Virus record (IMG/VR): IMGVR_UViG_2693429719_000008
Coordinates: 1-22,252 of that record
Origin: a virus
Taxonomy: Duplodnaviria; Heunggongvirae; Uroviricota; Caudoviricetes
Length of the DNA: 22,252 nt
Reading direction: 5' to 3' (one strand)
This document shows positions 5,096 through 14,237 of the stretch, piece after piece. Within the stretch, counting starts at the first letter, position 1; every line of letters begins with the position of its first letter. The translations under genes and the position numbers were made by a program. The notes under the pieces were generated by a model that did no database searches, was not told the origin of the DNA, and saw only the letters and a list, made by a program, of their open reading frames with translations.

Positions 5096-5399
5096 TTTTC
5101 ACCCCTGTCAGTCGTTCCCAGAAGTACGTCAGTGCAACCGAGCCCATCGCACCACTAATCCCCGCTGTCGCGAGAATCATGTAAATACTGAATCCACTTT
5201 CGATACTGATCAGGCCACCAATAACACCGGTGAATCCCGATACCACTATCTGAGCCAGAGCATTTATCCAGCTCCACGTTGCTTTACTTTGCTTCACATC
5301 TATCAGATAGCGGACCAAACCGCCCCAACCTGCGATGATCAGCAAAACGAGCCAGAACGCTCCGGCAAGGCTCTCTTTTTCGTGCATATGAATAGCCAA
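5082..5399 (-). CDS. Holin (three predicted TM segments, dual-Met N-terminus MAIHM)
   Basis: 105 aa with three hydrophobic stretches, immediately upstream of and overlapping the endolysin gene; not lambda S by sequence. Confidence 0.7.
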   Translation of the reverse strand: MAIHMHEKESLAGAFWLVLLIIAGWGGLVRYLIDVKQSKATWSWINALAQIVVSGFTGVIGGLISIESGFSIYMILATAGISGAMGSVALTYFWERLTGVKNAKS

Positions 5400-5615
5400 T
5401 GTTTCGCCGCCGACGAAAGGCCGGGACGCTAATGATTAAAAACTTACATGGGAAATATTGTTATAAACAGTCAACTCAAAATAACTAAAAAATCTTATAA
5501 CTAAGCGAATGGCCTTCAAAAGCCGATCCATGCAACTTGCATAAAACGATCTTTATCAATGAGTTACATGTGTGGTTAAATACCATGCTTTAAGGACTAA
5601 GAGCATTACCAGCAG

Positions 5616-6640: not shown

Positions 6641-7330
6641 TCAATCCAGTTTTGCAATACTTTGCTGTGAAAATGTCGTCTTTTGTTTTGAACGTGTTCT
6701 CGTTACAAGCAATAAAGCTTCGCTATCAAGCTGTAGAAAAATGTGCTTCATTGCAACCCAGCGTTCAGTAAATGTCTCAGACCAGTTTTTTGATGTCACT
6801 CCCACCAGTGATGCCAGCTCCTGGTATTCATAGGTCTTACGCCCTGCCAGCTCGTTCTTCACATCCTGTGCCGCCAGCCAGATCAACTTCTTCAAACGTT
6901 CCAGTGTCTTACCTGCAATTTTTCTGGTACCCAACAGAGTCTTAAACTCGCTCCATGCCCACTGCGTTATGGTGACCTGATGTTCCCAGCGAACACTTTC
7001 GCTGTAACTCCACAGCAACCACGCTTTCTGATGTTCTTCGAGAGACAGAACCGCGCGGCGCCATGACGAGGTTGAGAACTCAACCTGGCTTACCAGTGCA
7101 ATGGATGAACCTTTTGCGTACGACTGCTTACCGGAAATCGGCGGATTATCCAGCGTAATCATCCTGCCAGTTACCTCATCCAGAATGCGCAGCTTCTTTC
7201 GTTTGTATGTACCAGTATCAAATTGTGCATGCTCCAGCCAGGCTTCAAGCTGTCCTTTCGTTGCTCCGCTCAAATCAGCGGTAGCCACAATGAGTTGCTC
7301 GCGGACATACTGTAAATATTGGGTATTCAT
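6641..7330 (-). CDS. Putative late-gene antiterminator, Q-position protein (long cysteine-free type)
   Basis: 229-aa ORF in the Q slot between ylcG/rusA and the lysis genes; start overlaps the ylcG-like stop; contains no Cys, so it is not a lambda/82/21 zinc-finger Q. Assignment is mainly positional. Confidence 0.4.
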   Translation of the reverse strand: MNTQYLQYVREQLIVATADLSGATKGQLEAWLEHAQFDTGTYKRKKLRILDEVTGRMITLDNPPISGKQSYAKGSSIALVSQVEFSTSSWRRAVLSLEEHQKAWLLWSYSESVRWEHQVTITQWAWSEFKTLLGTRKIAGKTLERLKKLIWLAAQDVKNELAGRKTYEYQELASLVGVTSKNWSETFTERWVAMKHIFLQLDSEALLLVTRTRSKQKTTFSQQSIAKLD

Positions 7331-8113: not shown

Positions 8114-8276
8114 GATTCCTCCTTGCTGCCAGTCGCAACCATTTTTTATCAACCAGGCTGGCGGTATATCCGAGCAGTGTTGGTATTTCGGATGGCTTCA
8201 GCTCAGGTTTACGCTTACGACGATTTGGTACTCTGTAGATGTGTCCGTTCATGACACGAATAAGCGGTGTAGCCAT
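8106..8276 (-). CDS. ninE: NinE family protein
   Basis: From internal ATG: [56 protein letters not shown]; start overlaps the ybcN stop. Confidence 0.75.
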   Translation of the reverse strand: MATPLIRVMNGHIYRVPNRRKRKPELKPSEIPTLLGYTASLVDKKWLRLAARRNHG

Positions 8277-8731
8277 TACGCCTCCTGCTTGTCGCGCAGC
8301 AGCTGGAACTCGCAGCTCTGCGGAATAGTCAGGTGGCAACCAATATTCATCGCCCAGGCTTCAACCTTACACAGGAAGACATACATCTCTCCGGTATCGA
8401 GATCGGAGGTATGACGTAATGACTGAATGGTGGTGATTTCACCGGTTACGACATCAACCAGGTCTTTGGTTTCAAAACCGAGATAAGTGTGTTTGAGAGC
8501 ATCTTTTACCCAAGCTGCAGTAGCGAACGATTTCCCCCTGCTTATGAGGTATTCACTGATTTCGCTGTACCACATGTGGCTAAGTGCATTCTGGGAAAGA
8601 CTGCGTCTCTCGCGCCACGGTTTAAGCACCATGCGAAAGCATTTTCCGTCCTCCAGATAAGGCTGGATCTGCTGACCGATAGCGGTGAAGTTACCGCGAT
8701 GTAATTTGATGCCGTCTTGTGGGAGGTTCAC
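8276..8731 (-). CDS. ybcN: YbcN-like protein (NinB position)
   Basis: 151 aa ...[61 protein letters not shown]..., recognised as DLP12 YbcN; GTG start. Confidence 0.75.
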
Positions 8732-8764
8732 GCTTCACCTCCGCAGAGGTCAAACGTTGGATGC

Positions 8765-8890
8765 AAAAAATCGCAGGTGCATTTCTGCATCTGTGAAGGG
8801 AGAAGAGAGTTTGGATTGTGTGTGCGCATAAACGTCCCCGTTTAGCGCAGAAGTCACCGGAGTTGTTCAGGTTCCGGTGATACAATTATG
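8765..8890 (+). repeat. 126-bp direct repeat, copy A (partner at 10949..11074, about 92% identical)
   Basis: Hand alignment at offset 2184 gives 116/126 matches; contains a 10-bp-stem hairpin (8853-8881) and a second imperfect hairpin. Confidence 0.85.
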
Positions 8891-8941
8891 GCGAATTGAT
8901 GACGGAGAATCAATTTTGCGAAAATGACACGATTGATCTAC

Positions 8942-9574
8942 TCAGGCCTTGGAAAGCTTGAGCTTACCCTTTACGTGCAGAGTGTTAATTAACCAGAAGG
9001 CCCCGAGCAAACACATACAATGCGCGCTAGTGACTAACTTACAAATACGAATGCGATTTTCTTCAAGATCAGGAGGTAGCTCTTTCATCAACGCTATAGC
9101 GTAGATTCCATCCTTGAGAATTGGCTCAACAACTTGATGCACGTAGCCACCATGGTTAATCTCTTCTAACTTTATGTTTTTAATCGATTCTGCGAGTTTA
9201 TCAACCTCTTCATTTGTAATTACATATTCAATTTTATGAGCGTACTTGTTACGTATTGTGTTGAGCTCAGCCATAGCGTCTGCAAGCGAGACAGGAAGCC
9301 CTAACAGAACTGCGGCAGACAGCTTTGACGCAAAATACTTATAGCTTCTTATCGAATTGTATTTTTCAGAGCCATCAGGTCGTAAGTTTTCAATAACAAC
9401 CCGAAGAAAGTCCTCATGAATTAGCATCAATTTTAATAGCGCGGCAGACTCATCCTCATAGTTAGCTATCGAGGCCATTTTATTAAGATCTAGAAAATAG
9501 CCAAAGTCATGATCGATTTTCACGTAGTTACCCTCATCCGTTGTTGGACTTTGTTCAATTCGAGAGAATTTCAT
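8942..9574 (-). CDS. Hypothetical protein with a possible HEPN-type Rx4H motif; candidate effector of the nin cargo cassette
   Basis: 210 aa, AT-rich; contains NTIRNKYAHK (R-x4-H); predicted mostly helical; start ATG overlaps the stop of an upstream 58-aa ORF. Confidence 0.5.
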   Translation of the reverse strand: MKFSRIEQSPTTDEGNYVKIDHDFGYFLDLNKMASIANYEDESAALLKLMLIHEDFLRVVIENLRPDGSEKYNSIRSYKYFASKLSAAVLLGLPVSLADAMAELNTIRNKYAHKIEYVITNEEVDKLAESIKNIKLEEINHGGYVHQVVEPILKDGIYAIALMKELPPDLEENRIRICKLVTSAHCMCLLGAFWLINTLHVKGKLKLSKA

Positions 9575-9747
9575 TTATCTTCCTCCTGTTTCATATATCT
9601 AGGGTCAGATGCTTTAGGCTGGGTGATGCTATGCTCAATGGAGAAGCCGGACGCGCTCCATGTTGATTTGCCAGTTTGAGCTATCGTGACAACACATTCA
9701 TTATTGTCGATGTTAACTTCGCGCAGCACTGGTAACTGTGAATTCAT
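9571..9747 (-). CDS. Small protein (58 aa) translationally coupled to the downstream 210-aa gene
   Basis: Hand-translated MNSQLPVLREVNIDNNECVVTIAQTGKSTWSASGFSIEHSITQPKASDPRYMKQEEDK; GGAG RBS 8 nt upstream; stop TGA overlaps the next ATG. Below the ORF-track size cutoff. Confidence 0.4.
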   Translation of the reverse strand: MNSQLPVLREVNIDNNECVVTIAQTGKSTWSASGFSIEHSITQPKASDPRYMKQEEDK

Positions 9748-9909: not shown

Positions 9910-10521
9910 TTACTGCAACCTTTCCTGACGGAAATATGGTAACACTCGACTCCACTTATCATCCTGCCAAGGCTGGAATTTTACATGTGCCGTTTCTCTG
10001 GCGAGGATTGCTCGCGCTCTGTTGAGTATCTGGGGATATTCTTGCTCGATAGAAGTAAAGCGACCGGCTTCGCGGTGCTCCGCGACCTGAAGAAGTGGAG
10101 TAACGTTCTGGCAGGCAGTTAACATCACATCACTTGCTCGCCATAACCAAGCAAGTGTGCAAAGTTCGTTATCAGTGAATTGTTTTGTGATTGGGGATTG
10201 TTGAATTTCTCGATCGAGAAGATCCAGCACCCAGCGGCGGAATTCTTTGGCCACAGGAGTACGAGCAAACATGGCGATCAGATGGGCGCCTCGCAGGGAG
10301 AAAATGCGTATTGTTTTCTGGTAGTTCCCTGAGACACTCAAATTGAGGGTCTCAGTCATATCTGCCCTAAATTCATCGGAATTTCGATCGTAGATCTGAG
10401 TAACGGCATCAGATTTTTTATATCCGAGAGCTTGAGCAATCTCAACGGCAGTAAGCCAGATATTGTTGTTGTGGTTAATAGGATGGAATTTTGTTTGATG
10501 AAAGACTAGTTGTGTGCTCAT
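9910..10521 (-). CDS. Bro-N / antirepressor-like protein
   Basis: 203 aa; the N-terminal region (...NIWLTAVEIAQALGYKKSDAVTQIY...IFSLRGAHLIAMFARTPVAKEFRRWVLDLLD) resembles Bro-N/AntA-type phage regulatory domains. Confidence 0.55.
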   Translation of the reverse strand: MSTQLVFHQTKFHPINHNNNIWLTAVEIAQALGYKKSDAVTQIYDRNSDEFRADMTETLNLSVSGNYQKTIRIFSLRGAHLIAMFARTPVAKEFRRWVLDLLDREIQQSPITKQFTDNELCTLAWLWRASDVMLTACQNVTPLLQVAEHREAGRFTSIEQEYPQILNRARAILARETAHVKFQPWQDDKWSRVLPYFRQERLQ

Positions 10522-10676
10522 GGTGATTACCTATAAATCAAGTTAACCACCACCGCTGACGCCAATCAGTTTGGTGGTGAGACATGTAGGGTTGGCGTAA
10601 CCGGGGTAATCAACCGGCCCGACCGAAGTCGGCCCTACACGCCCCACCATAATTCAGATGTGCGTATGCTTACGAC

Positions 10677-10701
10677 AATAAAAAACACGCTCGCGGCGTG
10701 T
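10677..10701 (-). terminator. Rho-independent terminator for minus-strand (lambda-rightward) transcription
   Basis: Minus-strand ACACGC-CGCGA-GCGTGT hairpin followed by TTTTTATT. Confidence 0.6.
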
Positions 10702-10791
10702 AGTAGTCGCGATTACCTTATCCGGGACGCCAATCCCGTGTGCCGATTTTGCGGCAACGCGTAAGAATATATCCCCAGATAAATCATATCG

Positions 10792-10881
10792 TCAACCCCA
10801 GTAAATGGACACCATGATGATCACAGCCATAGCTGCTACAACTGTTGCAACTACTTTATGCCAAGACATCACGATTTCCAT
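10792..10881 (-). CDS. Small hydrophobic peptide (29 aa), possible membrane toxin-like ORF
   Basis: Hand-translated MEIVMSWHKVVATVVAAMAVIIMVSIYWG; AAGG RBS-like sequence upstream. Below the ORF-track size cutoff. Confidence 0.3.
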   Translation of the reverse strand: MEIVMSWHKVVATVVAAMAVIIMVSIYWG

Positions 10882-10948
10882 ATCGCCTTTAGCCGCCAGA
10901 CGAACAGAGATTCCCAGCTTTATACTGCCGAGGCCAAACACCGAATAT

Positions 10949-11074
10949 AAAAAACCGCAGGTGCATTTCTACATCTGTGAAGGGAGAAGATAATTTGGAT
11001 TGTATGTGCGCATAAACGTCCCCGTTTAGCGCAGAAGTCATCGGAGTTGTTCAGGCTCCGATGACATGATTATG
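10949..11074 (+). repeat. 126-bp direct repeat, copy B (partner at 8765..8890)
   Basis: See copy A; the hairpin in copy B (11037-11065) is a perfect 10-bp stem. Confidence 0.85.
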
Positions 11075-11101
11075 AAAGGTTGATTCTAAAAAAATCAAAA
11101 A

Positions 11102-11615: not shown

Positions 11616-12317
11616 TCATGCTCTGTCTCCTTTCAGCCCAAACTTAGCTTTGATTTCTGCGATCTTCGCCAGAGCCTGTGCACGATTTAGAGGTCTACCG
11701 CCCATGACAGGAAGTTGTTTTACTGGTTCAGGTATAGCCTCACCACGGTTAATTCGTGCGGTCATACAGGACAGTTCATCGGCAGCCTTGCGCCGTAATT
11801 CCGCGTCAGTCAACGCATTGGCCCGCATGTTCTGATACAGGTTGGTAACCAGCCAGTAGTGCGCGTTTGATTTCCACGGATAAGACTCTGCATCCGGATA
11901 CAGCCCGCGCTTCCGGCAATACTCGTAAACCATATCAACCAGCTCGCTGGCGTTTGGCAGCCCGGCGGTAACGGATGCTTCTTCCCGGCACCAGGCGACA
12001 AACTGCCCGGGTGATGGCAGGAATGGTCGATTCTGCCGACGGGCTACGCGCATTCCAGCGTTAACCTGTTCCATTGTGGTGATCCCGTTTTCCCGGAAAG
12101 CCAGCACCCACTGGCGGCGGATTTCGTTCAGTTCATTCTGGTCACGGTTAGCCAGGCTCGCCGGGAAAGTTGCCAGTAACTGGCTGAACACACCGTTGAT
12201 GATCTGCGCTACCTGCTGTACCTGAGGCTTTTCGTCGTACTGTTCCGGCATGTTGTTGGCGATCCGACGCATCTGCTCACGGTCAAAGTTAACCATCTGT
12301 GCGGCGATGTTTTTCAT
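11616..12317 (-). CDS. P: Replication protein P (DnaB helicase loader)
   Basis: 233 aa MKNIAAQMVNFDREQMRRIANNMPEQYDEKPQVQQVAQIINGVFSQLLATFPASLANRDQNE... is near-identical to lambda P as I recall it. Confidence 0.95.
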   Translation of the reverse strand: MKNIAAQMVNFDREQMRRIANNMPEQYDEKPQVQQVAQIINGVFSQLLATFPASLANRDQNELNEIRRQWVLAFRENGITTMEQVNAGMRVARRQNRPFLPSPGQFVAWCREEASVTAGLPNASELVDMVYEYCRKRGLYPDAESYPWKSNAHYWLVTNLYQNMRANALTDAELRRKAADELSCMTARINRGEAIPEPVKQLPVMGGRPLNRAQALAKIAEIKAKFGLKGDRA

Positions 12318-13333
12318 AGATCCACCCCGTAAATCCAGTCAGTGTTTGTCAGGTCGAGTTTTGGTTTGCCGACTGTCACGCCAGCCTGTTGCTTGTTCCG
12401 GTTGATTTCGAGCTGGGTCCACTTGTCGCGGAGTTTGGCCGGACTCAGCACGTTACCGGACCAGAAGTTGTCCTGGCAGGCCCAGCGGAACAGTACACAC
12501 ATGTCGCGGTGGTTACGTCCATCACGTTCACGCATCAGACGGATATCGTTAGCCCACCCTGCAAAATTCGGTTTTCTGGCTGATGGCGCGATGGTCTTCA
12601 CCATGTCAAACATCCACTCTGCGGCGGTCAGGTCTTCTGCTGTCCCCCACTTGCTGCCGCTCTGAATCGCAGCATCCGCTTTCACCACAGGAAGGTCGTT
12701 TTCTGGCAGGTCAGAGGATTCGCCAGAATTCTCGGACGAATAAGGTTTTATATTGTCTTTTGTTAGTTTGTCTTTTGTGTTTACCTGATTCGGGTAAGTG
12801 CCTTTACCTGATTTGGGTAAACTTTTCTTACCTGATTCAGGTAAATTTACCTCTTTCAGGTAAACTTTATTTTTCTTACCTGATTCGGGTAATTTTGACC
12901 ATTCACTGACCACATTATTAATGCCGATATTCCGCCCGCTCTGAATAAAAATCCCACGCTTTACCAGAACACTTTTTGCAGCAGAACACTTGTGCGGCAA
13001 TATCCCGGTCAACTCGGAAAGTTGCTCGTTGCTCACCCAATCCAGTTTTTTATTAAAGCCATATGTTTTGCGCATGACAGCCAGGAAGACCAGAAGCTGG
13101 TGCTGTGTTAATCCGGCCAGCATTACAGCTTCCAGCAACTCATTTGCAATGCGCGTATAACCATCATCGAGATCTGCCACGCGCGGCTCCTTTTGTGCCG
13201 CATCCGGCACTGGAAAATTGAATATCTCAGCAGTGTTTGCCATAATTCCTCCCGCAATGAGTGTGTTACGATTTGCATCTGAAAGTCGGTTCTGTTCCCG
13301 CAGACCGACTTTCGCCATTTTTGAACCTGTCAT
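12314..13333 (-). CDS. O: Replication initiator O, hybrid: non-lambda N-terminal iteron-binding domain with lambda-like C-terminal P-interacting domain (alternative start at 13243)
   Basis: N-terminal region has the VADLDDGY motif but otherwise differs from lambda O; the C-terminal ~100 aa (AAEWMFDMVKTIAPSARKPNFAGWANDIRLMRERDGRNHRDMCVLFRWACQD...) matches lambda O; iterons are embedded in the gene. Confidence 0.85.
   Translation of the reverse strand: MTGSKMAKVGLREQNRLSDANRNTLIAGGIMANTAEIFNFPVPDAAQKEPRVADLDDGYTRIANELLEAVMLAGLTQHQLLVFLAVMRKTYGFNKKLDWVSNEQLSELTGILPHKCSAAKSVLVKRGIFIQSGRNIGINNVVSEWSKLPESGKKNKVYLKEVNLPESGKKSLPKSGKGTYPNQVNTKDKLTKDNIKPYSSENSGESSDLPENDLPVVKADAAIQSGSKWGTAEDLTAAEWMFDMVKTIAPSARKPNFAGWANDIRLMRERDGRNHRDMCVLFRWACQDNFWSGNVLSPAKLRDKWTQLEINRNKQQAGVTVGKPKLDLTNTDWIYGVDL
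12781..12892. repeat. Replication origin iterons inside O: five copies of TTACCTGATTCGGGTAA (one degenerate), with an adjacent AT-rich tract at about 12740-12780
   Basis: Palindromic 17-mers at 12781, 12804, 12828, 12847 (degenerate) and 12876; the AT-rich block lies on the downstream side in the O direction, as in lambda ori. Confidence 0.8.
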
Positions 13334-13899: not shown

Positions 13900-14127
13900 T
13901 TAGGCGGCAGAATTACTCGCGTTAAACAATGGTGCGAGGTCGGGACGAATATCTGCTGGCTTAATCTTTCCACCAGTGGCTGAGACAATTTTCATTACAT
14001 AGCGGGCATCAATTCCGCCACCGTGTAGCCAACGCCAAACAGTGGGCTGGGCTACACCGCATAGATCTGCCAGTCGTTTTTGACTACCTGTAATACTGAT
14101 TGCGAGTTGAATGGTTTGATTTGTCAT
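13900..14127 (-). CDS. cro: Cro-like repressor (helix-turn-helix)
   Basis: 75 aa from the ATG at 14127 (the track ORF begins 2 codons upstream at TTG): MTNQTIQLAISITGSQKRLADLCGVAQPTVWRWLHGG...; divergent from cI across the operator region; AGGA RBS. Confidence 0.65.
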   Translation of the reverse strand: MTNQTIQLAISITGSQKRLADLCGVAQPTVWRWLHGGGIDARYVMKIVSATGGKIKPADIRPDLAPLFNASNSAA

Positions 14128-14237
14128 TATCAATTCCTATTGGTATTACAATGAATGGATAATAGCAATGCGTATTAACCATGGCAATAGCAAAACGTGT
14201 TTTGACCATCAATACGCAAGCGTATAAATTAAAACTT
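14128..14237. promoter_or_regulatory. OR region: three 16-bp operator sites at 25-bp spacing with divergent pR and pRM
   Basis: Sites AATAGCAATGCGTATT (14161-14176), AATAGCAAAACGTGTT (14186-14201), AATACGCAAGCGTATA (14211-14226). pR on the minus strand: -35 TTGCCA (14182-14187), 17-nt spacer, -10 TATTAT (14159-14164). pRM -10 TATAAA at 14223-14228 places the start close to the cI ATG. Confidence 0.6.

Follow-up and report, generated by a model that had tools for sequence, protein, structure and literature searches.

A duplicated leader before ninB in a lambda-like prophage: a probable structured RNA that may gate entry into the ninB-to-Q operon

Introduction

The window analysed here is a stretch of 22,252 nucleotides (nt) of DNA (IMG/VR record IMGVR_UViG_2693429719_000008, positions 1 to 22,252) that represents a lambda-like prophage, with its early-right operon on the minus strand. 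Two copies of one sequence occur in this operon, and one of them stands immediately before a ninB/ybcN-type gene. What is this repeated sequence, does it act as DNA or as RNA, and why does it occur twice? An earlier note, made from the sequence alone, had seen in it a hairpin preserved by a compensatory substitution, and had offered a structured RNA, a terminator, a protein-binding site and a recombination substrate as explanations. We found the identification of the repeat unit as the leader (5' control region) that serves the ninB/ybcN-to-Q block in a large group of Enterobacteriaceae lambda-like prophages to be well supported. Sequence comparison gave similarly good support to the view that the leader acts as RNA, made from the window's minus strand. 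We refer to the complete leader before ninB as copy A (8728-8913, minus strand), and to the second, partial one as copy B (10927-11098, minus strand). Copy B comprises a promoter-like site, two hairpins (HP1 and HP2) and the first half of a small open reading frame (ORF).

Results

The repeat is a conserved leader that precedes ninB in many prophages

We observed that the direct repeats at 8743-8890 and 10927-11074 are the sole long direct-repeat family in the window. They are 148 nt long and 2184 nt apart, and a direct count gave 129/148 identical positions (87% identity), with a longest perfect run of 36 nt. A repeat of this length and identity within 22 kb far exceeds a chance origin. The 126-bp pair described earlier (8765-8890 and 10949-11074) is real, although 115/126 of its positions are identical (91.3%) and not 116/126. 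That it is a known gene's end, copied by chance, can be dismissed, as the repeat comprises a promoter-like site and a leader together with the 5' half of a small gene that is already annotated.

The copy A leader is 92-97% identical to sequences in phage 82, DLP12 and many other phages, and it always lies immediately upstream of ninB/ybcN. Over about 158 nt, the identity was 93.7% to the region before orf151 of phage 82, and 93% to the region before ybcN of the DLP12 prophage in E. coli K-12. Phi80, HK639, HK225 and phages of Klebsiella and Enterobacter carry the leader at the corresponding position. Among 5426 complete E. coli genomes, 2849 contain it, and it was found further in prophages of Enterobacter, Citrobacter, Trabulsiella, Lelliottia, Scandinavium and others. 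(Individual homologous loci are cited here by L numbers.) An enterobacterial prophage leader was found as well in an actinobacterial assembly (L138, the 1115-bp contig NZ_JAVHZE010000050.1 of a Kocuria sabuli assembly); this contig is most likely assembly contamination. The 5' edge of the element is a mosaic junction: the homology starts abruptly at the -35 hexamer TTGATT, and the sequence upstream is unrelated between genomes.

Phage 82 (GenBank X92588) and the ylcH-ybcN region of DLP12 share with the window the element, its position before a ninB-family gene and a 33-codon ORF that overlaps the start of this gene. Copy A has all the features of what we informally define here as the phage 82/DLP12-type leader family. 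Copy B is recognized by the HP1+HP2 covariance model described below, but it is not adjacent to ninB and lacks the open ORF and the overlap. This second, partial copy is what distinguishes the window from phage 82 and DLP12. The X92588 record annotates a putative -35/-10 pair, a palindrome as a 'possible regulator-binding site', and the 33-codon orf33 overlapping orf151, while in the K-12 DLP12 prophage the same ORF is named ylcH. The phage 82 and K-12 records thus annotate a promoter and a protein gene, along with a possible regulator site in DNA, and contain no RNA-structure reading. The sequence, the ORF and the putative promoter are therefore already known from X92588; new here are the four-hairpin RNA, its covariation and the non-coding character of ylcH, which are absent from Rfam 15 and were not found in the searchable literature.

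Copy A contains a promoter-like site, four hairpins and a small ORF

A consensus scan placed promoter-like hexamers of copy A at 8885-8913 (minus strand), with TTGATT (8913-8908) as the -35, a 17-nt spacer and CATAAT (8890-8885) as the -10. In copy B the corresponding site (11069-11098, minus strand) has TTGATT at 11098-11093, an 18-nt spacer and CATAAT at 11074-11069, and these hexamers are conserved in the identical copy-B-type element of L037. Each site shows 9/12 matches to the sigma-70 hexamers, with a spacing within the 16-18 nt range. The -35 region of copy A can also be read as an inverted repeat, TTGAT-N8-ATCAA. The window contains three matches to this pattern where 0.42 would be expected, two of which are, however, the repeat copies themselves; the third, at 14116-14133, overlaps the ribosome-binding site and start of a cro/ydaS-like gene.

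The hairpin of the earlier note, HP1 (8854-8880, minus strand), has the stem UCACCGGA/UCCGGUGA, with 8 bp and an A.C mismatch by the loop, and the loop region ACCUGAACAAC. It folds at -12.1 kcal/mol (z = -4.6), and no shuffled sequence folded as well. After it, the minus strand reads CUUCUGCGC and the plus strand UACAAUUAU. We could not uphold its reading as a terminator: there is no U-run after the hairpin, it does not show a G+C-rich stem with a U-tract, and the terminator scan did not report it. HP2 (8824-8848, minus strand; GCGCUAAACG-GGGA-CGUUUA(U)GCGC) also folds at -12.1 kcal/mol. Its loop contains a Shine-Dalgarno (SD) sequence (GGGGA), and its 3' arm pairs the AUG (8829-8827) of the small ORF. 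This ORF (8728-8829, minus strand, from translation) has 33 codons and is the homolog of phage 82 orf33 and K-12 ylcH. Its UGA stop overlaps the GUG start of ninB (GUGA, 8731-8728).

HP3 (8772-8795, minus strand; CACAGAUGCA-GAAA-UGCACCUGCG) lies within the small ORF and is followed by a U-run at 8765-8770; alone, it folds at -7.3 kcal/mol. The last hairpin, HP4 (8728-8758, minus strand; ACGUUUGACCUC-UGCG-GAGGUGAAGCGU; -17.1 kcal/mol, z = -6.1), buries the SD of ninB (GGAGG) and adjoins the GUG start. The whole 158-nt leader folds at -56.3 kcal/mol (z = -6.2). HP1 is not an element of its own but the first of four hairpins in a small-ORF/ninB leader, while its reading as a structured RNA stands. 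Neither copy matched an Rfam 15 family at the gathering thresholds, and at E values up to 10 the sole overlap was a chance snoRNA match (E = 0.72).

The terminator scan flagged HP3 with its T-run (8765-8795) as a weak terminator-like site with 5 pairs; the gap between stem and U-run is 2-3 nt, and the U-run is not conserved, being interrupted in many homologs (AUUUUCU; AAUUCUUU in DLP12). A small transcript end at the T-run, as suggested earlier, is thus possible and weakly supported, given the low stability of the stem, the position of the T-run inside the small ORF and its interruption in homologs that include DLP12. The HP3 block within the small ORF is the most conserved nucleotide block of the element. 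In L145 (Enterobacter sp. BIGb0383, NZ_RJKQ01000002.1), a type I-E CRISPR array at about 5377-5586 (plus strand; repeat CGGTTTATCCCCGCTGGCGCGGGGAACAC) carries a 32-nt spacer, TTGTCACAGATGCAGAAATGCACCTGCGATTT, that is identical to this block. A host immune system thus targets exactly the invariant sequence of the leader.

Pairing in HP1 and HP2 is kept while their sequences change

By direct inspection of the minus strand, the HP1 arms are UCACCGGA...UCCGGUGA in copy A and GUCAUCGGAG...CUCCGAUGAC in copy B. A C-G pair of copy A is U-A in copy B, with both sides changed, so that the compensatory C-to-T and G-to-A change is exactly as the earlier note had it. A second difference lies beside the loop, where A in copy A is G in copy B, giving an extra G-C pair in B against the A.C mismatch in A. 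One changed pair between two copies alone is weak evidence, and it is the homolog survey that makes the evidence for compensatory change solid.

Homologs were gathered by two independent exact-match seeds, one consisting of the HP1 loop and linker and the other placed in the small ORF, which gave about 160 distinct elements. MAFFT/RNAalifold on the raw alignments missed HP1 and HP2, since stems of differing length and sequence were misaligned; we therefore used a covariance-model alignment. The HP1+HP2 model was built from 32 sequences, and it aligned 107 matches from 98 sources, giving 101 distinct rows. Over these rows, 95.5% of the cells were standard pairs; column shuffles gave 77.5%, and sliding the partners gave 50% at most. 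Changes on both sides were seen in 18/20 pairs (9/10 in HP1 and 9/10 in HP2), and each measure was above all 500 shuffles. The earlier claim of selection on the hairpin structure was thus supported.

The pair that had first drawn attention is U.G in 47, C-G in 43 and U-A in 7 of the 101 distinct sequences. U.G (UCAUCGG/CCGGUGA) is the commonest state, and the three states form a classic wobble-intermediate path, C-G/U.G/U-A. HP1 had 105 G.U cells as compared to 24 A.C cells, which indicates a helix that pairs well in the minus-strand RNA and poorly in the complementary strand.

The HP1 stem is 9-10 bp long, and its sequence has been replaced repeatedly: UCAYCGGAG/CUCCGRUGA, UCGCAGUCGG/CCGGUUGCGA, UUGCUGAUGG/CCAUUGGUGA, CUGCCAG/CUGGCAG and GCCGCCGG/CCGGCGG were all observed, and UUGCUGAYGG, CUGCCAGCGG and UGCCGCCGG are further arms with matching partners. 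While the stem changes completely, the loop consensus YUGARC is kept, mostly as CCUGAACAA. This wholesale exchange of the arms around a kept loop disfavours HP1 as a protein-binding site in DNA. In HP2, at least six unrelated stems surround the GGGA loop (TAAACG/CGTTTA, ATTTAAG/CTTAAAT, TTTGAG/CTCAAA, ATATGATT/AATTATAT, TCTGATT/AATTAGA and CTTCGATG/CATTGAAG), with the SD in or beside the loop and the start codon of the small ORF (AUG or GUG) in the 3' arm. Compensatory changes in HP3 were few, with A-U to U.G in three sequences and A-U to C-G in one. HP4 occurs as three sequence types, each of which pairs the ninB SD, and 3/6 of its consensus pairs were changed on both sides in 10-11 of 30 sequences.

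When applied to the window, the HP1+HP2 model found exactly two copies, with 107.6 bits for copy B (10991-11068, all pairs standard) and 99.4 bits for copy A. Both copies are in the seed alignment of the model, so that these scores are partly by construction; homologs outside the seed scored 29-74 bits. The third-best match in the window, with 19.5 bits, was the palindromic stem read on the opposite strand.

In L146, L174, L163 and L168, the loop GAA of HP1 is GAG and the linker UUC is CUC or CUU, so that a 3-bp complementarity between loop and linker is kept. We evaluated a loop-linker pseudoknot and rejected it: an H-type pseudoknot is sterically unlikely with a linker that starts 1 nt after a 10-bp stem, and the covariation is limited to two small lineages.

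The promoter-like site is at a fixed distance from HP1

A -10-like hexamer was found 4-5 nt before HP1 in 161/161 distinct elements, and both hexamers had at least 4/6 matches in 150. The exact arrangement TTGATT-17-CATAAT was present in 102/161, and the few elements without a -35 have an extended -10, TGnTATAAT, instead. A terminator-like hairpin was present in 23 of 140 distinct upstream flanks, no more than about 100 nt before the -35. In one subfamily (L013, L033, L044, L050, L062, L063, L067, L085 and L090), a strong terminator-like hairpin, GGCCTCTTCGGAGGCC, with a T-run ends just before the -35.

The frame of the small ORF is conserved, but not its peptide

The small ORF was open at 31-34 codons in 154/161 elements, and an ATGA or GTGA overlap with the ninB start was present in 152/161. 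Variation by codon position (209/178/233 and 103/92/80) showed no third-position excess, and differences from the consensus were nonsynonymous rather than synonymous by about 5-6 to 1 (323 vs 55 and 168 vs 33). Hence, the frame and the endpoint are conserved while the peptide is not, which points to a reading frame whose translation, and not its product, matters. A protein function was considered and rejected, as the ORF matched no Pfam or PHROG family and the peptide showed no purifying selection. Copy A has the sequence features of a coupled upstream ORF: the frame and endpoint are kept, the peptide is free, and the ninB SD lies in the conserved HP4.

Copy B heads the isrK-C4-Ant cassette

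HP1 of copy B (11037-11065, minus strand; GUCAUCGGAG/CUCCGAUGAC, loop CCUGAACAA) has 10 bp and folds at -15.1 kcal/mol (z = -5.9), with no shuffle as stable. HP2 (11008-11032, minus strand) has the same sequence as in copy A. The small ORF is truncated (10969-11013, minus strand): it reads MRTYNPNYLLPSQM and is then closed at codon 15 by a TAG, which is CAG in copy A. The same TAG is present in L037 and L123, while L131, L038, L180 and L184 have an open ORF of 46-53 codons. An HP3 remnant (10956-10979, minus strand; -5.3 kcal/mol) is followed by a U6 run (10949-10954), and the homology ends at 10927. Beyond this point comes a copy-B-type continuation (...UUCGGUGUUU...GGGARUCUCURUUYGUCUGGCGGCUAAAGG) that was also found in L037, L123, L131, L046, L180, L184, L038 and L002.

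The cassette follows on the minus strand. A small hydrophobic ORF (10792-10941) has 49 codons from the GTG at 10941, or 29 from the ATG at 10881 (MEIVMSWHKVVATVVAAMAVIIMVSIYWG), and matches PHROG 4612 over its C-terminal half (E = 1.1e-12). Here it shares the frame of the truncated copy-B ORF; at other loci the two ORFs overlap in different frames. The isrK promoter-like site (10766-10795, TTGACG-18-TATATT) overlaps its end. After this come the isrK/c4-a1b1 RNA (10680-10756), the C4 antisense RNA (10570-10654), the anti-repressor Ant (9910-10521; Bro-N and P22AR_C), a 58-amino-acid ORF (9571-9747) and a 210-amino-acid ORF (8942-9574; PHROG 5712). Rfam matches in the cassette were RF01394 with 61.2 bits, RF01695 with 74.2 bits and RF03163 with 36.4 bits, the last below gathering. 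The C4-complementary segments UUGGCGU and GGUAAUC occur twice, once in isrK and once immediately ahead of the start codon of Ant at 10521 (10521-10560). Together, 10570-10795 and 10521-10560 make up a complete P1-immI-like control unit.

The isrK/a1b1 RNA, C4 and the anti-repressor with its C4-complementary ribosome-binding region resemble the P1/P7 immI (c4-icd-ant) and Gifsy-1 isrK loci (PMC4825925). This likeness is one of the cargo and not of the repeat; the match to Gifsy-1 and the Stx phages is confined to isrK-C4 and does not include a copy-B leader.

The two copies do bracket the cassette, as the earlier note had said; they are not, however, a fresh target duplication around the cargo, as copy B itself belongs to the cassette and is conserved with it. 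Integron-like attC sites and transposon ends were set aside, the copies being direct repeats of an expression signal and copy B being cassette sequence. The upstream copy, isrK and C4 follow one another at fixed distance in all eight two-copy loci with isrK/C4, and copy B with the small-ORF sequence is present at 80% coverage or more in 297 complete E. coli genomes. Because of this, we regard copy B as the conserved head of one version of a mosaic anti-repressor module and not as a duplication made on cargo entry; the sequences indicate that its fusion to the cassette is an established mosaic variant and not a local accident. Strain SCU-113 shares the Ant-side genes, there under Arc-type regulators, and has only one leader. 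The contig L102 (an IMGVR_UViG contig) has two full leaders 4.1 kb apart (6847-6924 and 10950-11027), with intact 33-codon ORFs and no isrK/C4 between them; this duplication is of a different kind from that in the window. The full Watson-Crick pairing restored in HP1 of copy B argues that this copy is still used as RNA. The ORF stop here and the degraded hairpins at some other loci indicate that the constraint on copy B is looser.

The genes around the leader

On the minus strand, the order is O, P, an 85-amino-acid ORF, copy B, the cassette, copy A, ninB, the packed nin genes and a Q-like ORF. The O-like gene (12314-13333, minus strand) holds five iterons (12776-12896; consensus TTACCTGATTCGGGTAA, spacing 19-29 nt), which are the expected lambdoid replication origin. 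The P gene (11616-12317, minus strand) matches Pfam Phage_lambda_P. The ninB/ybcN-type gene served by copy A (8276-8731, minus strand) encodes 151 amino acids and matches PHROG 72 (NinB/Orf, E = 2.8e-51), with a weak match to Pfam NinB. After ninB there are no intergenic gaps: ninE-, ybcO-, rusA- and ylcG-like ORFs follow and then the Q-like ORF (6641-7330, minus strand, from the ORF list). The order from ninB to Q matches phage 82 and DLP12, and a scan of the window gave no strong terminator between the leader and Q.

Two candidate relationships in this region were set aside. A Q-dependent promoter was not favoured, as the PR' region downstream of Q (TTGACT-17-TAGATT, 6567-6539) has no resemblance to the leader. 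The Hfq-bound prophage small RNAs of enterohaemorrhagic E. coli (AgvB/AsxR, EcOnc) are described from the moron site downstream of PR', and EcOnc13/32 in Sp3 lie downstream of Q.

Discussion

The leader as a translationally coupled gate

The features of copy A suggest how the leader might work. It could be an off-by-default gate on ninB, in which HP4 would block direct ribosome entry at ninB, and ribosomes finishing the short ORF would melt HP4 and reinitiate at ninB. In this translational coupling, the act of translation would count and not the peptide, and the short ORF would itself be throttled by HP2. From the conserved hexamers at a fixed distance, the transcript start is predicted at the base of HP1, or a few nt from it, which would make HP1 a 5'-terminal hairpin. 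Hairpins at the 5' end are known to stabilize mRNAs; HP1 most likely does this, and the conservation of its loop suggests recognition by some factor. The duplication would give the cassette the same promoter-like site and 5' hairpins, so that both units would share inputs. We infer the gate from sequence features, and we consider the whole explanation, the identity of the leader together with the coupled gate, to be rather probable.

Translationally coupled upstream ORFs are known to open sequestered ribosome-binding sites, as in secM-secA and the erm leader peptides. The leader shares with these a short ORF that would melt a hairpin over the next SD, here with a stop/start overlap and a free peptide. 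It differs from them in having no known stalling motif or inducer, in that its own ORF is closed by HP2, and in that HP1 has no counterpart there. In lambda, the corresponding map position, between the replication genes (with cargo) and ninB, is the tR2/nin entry into the operon that ends in Q. There, the strong terminator tR2 (AGGCCTGCTGGTAATCGCAGGCCTTTTTATTT) is followed directly by an SD and ninB, without leader hairpins or a short ORF. As some relatives have a tR2-like terminator just upstream of the leader, we take the leader to be an addition and not a homolog of tR2.

Low default output from ninB is consistent with the report that rusA, which lies downstream in DLP12, needed promoter-supplying insertions for adequate expression of its operon (PMC4118853). 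In a compendium study, ybcL to quuD is one predicted operon, whose weakest link (correlation 0.54) is at ybcM-ylcH.

Several points weigh against this explanation. The rusA result can equally mean that the promoter-like site is weak or inactive. The literature on ylcH yielded a two-fold RNA change and an operon prediction only, and no start, transcript or protein data were found. The pair counts come from a structure-fitted alignment and so lean toward structure, and many of the counted cells are from related sequences and not independent events; the whole-stem replacement is, however, visible in the raw sequences. Both seeds lie inside the element, which makes the conservation of loop and linker partly a matter of construction for one of them; with the ORF-placed second seed, 97/120 distinct upstream sequences shared this loop and linker, the others being variable. 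Finally, copy B may be partly decaying, with the ORF stop here and degraded hairpins in L180, L131 and L002.

A more specific version of the RNA reading is that HP1-HP2 is a dedicated cis-regulatory RNA that had gone unrecognized. Its conserved YUGARC loop would be bound by a specific factor acting in trans (an RNA, or a protein of phage or host), and entry into the ninB-to-Q operon would be gated in this way. We hold this version only tentatively.

Other explanations

An RNA that starts at the promoter-like site could also stop at HP3 and its U-run. The product would be a stand-alone small RNA or attenuated transcript of about 110 nt (HP1-HP2-HP3), acting in trans, or else an attenuator passed only with short-ORF translation or by antitermination-modified RNA polymerase. 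The promoter-like site, three hairpins and U-run are in the right order for this, copy-B-type elements have largely retained the U6 run, and with no gaps or strong terminators from the leader to Q, a block after a live promoter would be biologically sensible in a lysogen. This seems unlikely to us all the same, because HP3, with an internal mismatch, is weak in both copies (-7.3 and -5.3 kcal/mol), and its U-run, besides being broken in many homologs, pairs in the full-length fold with the A-rich 5' side of HP3 and does not trail the stem. The HP3 block also lies inside an ORF with a conserved frame and ninB overlap, and no Rfam family was matched. The suggestion of the phage 82 annotators was a different one, a DNA operator, in which a repressor of the nin-region promoter would bind the HP1 arms or the TTGAT-N8-ATCAA repeat over the -35. 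A palindrome does lie right at the predicted transcription start, the arms of TTGAT-N8/9-ATCAA are kept around a variable spacer, as in protein sites, and a third such repeat lies over the cro-like start (14116-14133). One extra match is not significant, however, given that the other two are the repeat copies. The half-sites of HP1 are not conserved: its arms have been replaced with the pairing and the loop kept, and G.U pairs are favoured on one strand only, which is the signature of an RNA and not of a DNA site read by protein. In addition, the element is common to different immunity types (82, phi80, HK639 and DLP12), so that an immunity-specific repressor is improbable. Taken together, we judge an operator to be quite unlikely.

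A cis-acting antitermination RNA of the nut or put kind would place HP1 and HP2 in contact with RNA polymerase, directly or through a phage protein, and modify it so that it reaches Q. Two adjacent stem-loops just after a promoter-like site at the entry to the Q operon would suit this role, as would the annotation of terminators in this region of the member HK639. The hairpins also resemble boxB (nut) and the HK022-type put RNAs, which likewise occur in lambdoid early operons and show a conserved loop on a covarying stem. The likeness does not extend further: boxB has a 5-bp stem and a pentaloop (GNRNA-type), whereas HP1 has 9-10 bp and a 9-nt loop; HP2 is plainly a translation-initiation structure; and the leader has another map position, with no boxA (CGCTCTTA-like) match near either copy on the minus strand. 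Moreover, no strong terminator to be overcome was found between the leader and Q, and no Rfam match was obtained, which leaves antitermination a very unlikely function. The last alternative is a pure recombination linker, a patch of homology for module exchange and for gain or loss of the cassette, without any function in expression. The 5' edge of the leader is a mosaic junction with many unrelated upstream genes, and the 36-nt perfect run lies within 87-91% identity between the copies, a divergence similar to that at which phage Rad52-type recombinases give rare recombinants (PMC3945230). Recombination between the copies, which the earlier note had proposed, is thus mechanistically plausible; the deletion junction it predicts (copy B flank, hybrid leader and ninB, made synthetically) had no match covering more than 59% in the 5426 complete E. 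coli genomes. The compensatory changes, the strand bias of G.U, the ORF frame and the stop/start overlap reflect selection on features of RNA and translation, for which a homology patch has no need. The covariation contradicts a linker as the sole explanation, which we find highly improbable, although roles as a linker and in expression are not exclusive. Lambdoid morons and mosaic boundaries (Juhala et al. 2000, cited in PMC4104026; traces of homologous recombination, PMC3945230) are similar in that an autonomous unit lies between conserved genes with junctions in short conserved sequence. The window differs from them in that the junction sequence is itself duplicated and is a structured expression signal.

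Implications

The leader is present in about half of the complete E. coli genomes, including K-12, at the sole entry to an operon that ends in the antiterminator Q, and yet it has no RNA-family annotation and essentially no literature. Our results suggest that YlcH, although annotated as a protein, serves as a regulatory reading frame rather than as a functional peptide. A seed alignment with strong covariation is ready for a new cis-regulatory RNA family, and the translationally coupled gate offers a concrete, testable model for low nin/Q expression. The duplication shows that the leader has been reused as a portable expression signal in the assembly of phage cassettes. If the more specific version with a trans factor were true, late-gene activation in a large fraction of E. 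coli prophages would have to pass a second checkpoint, the HP1-HP2 switch, which would also have been reused to control the small membrane protein that heads the isrK-C4-Ant module.

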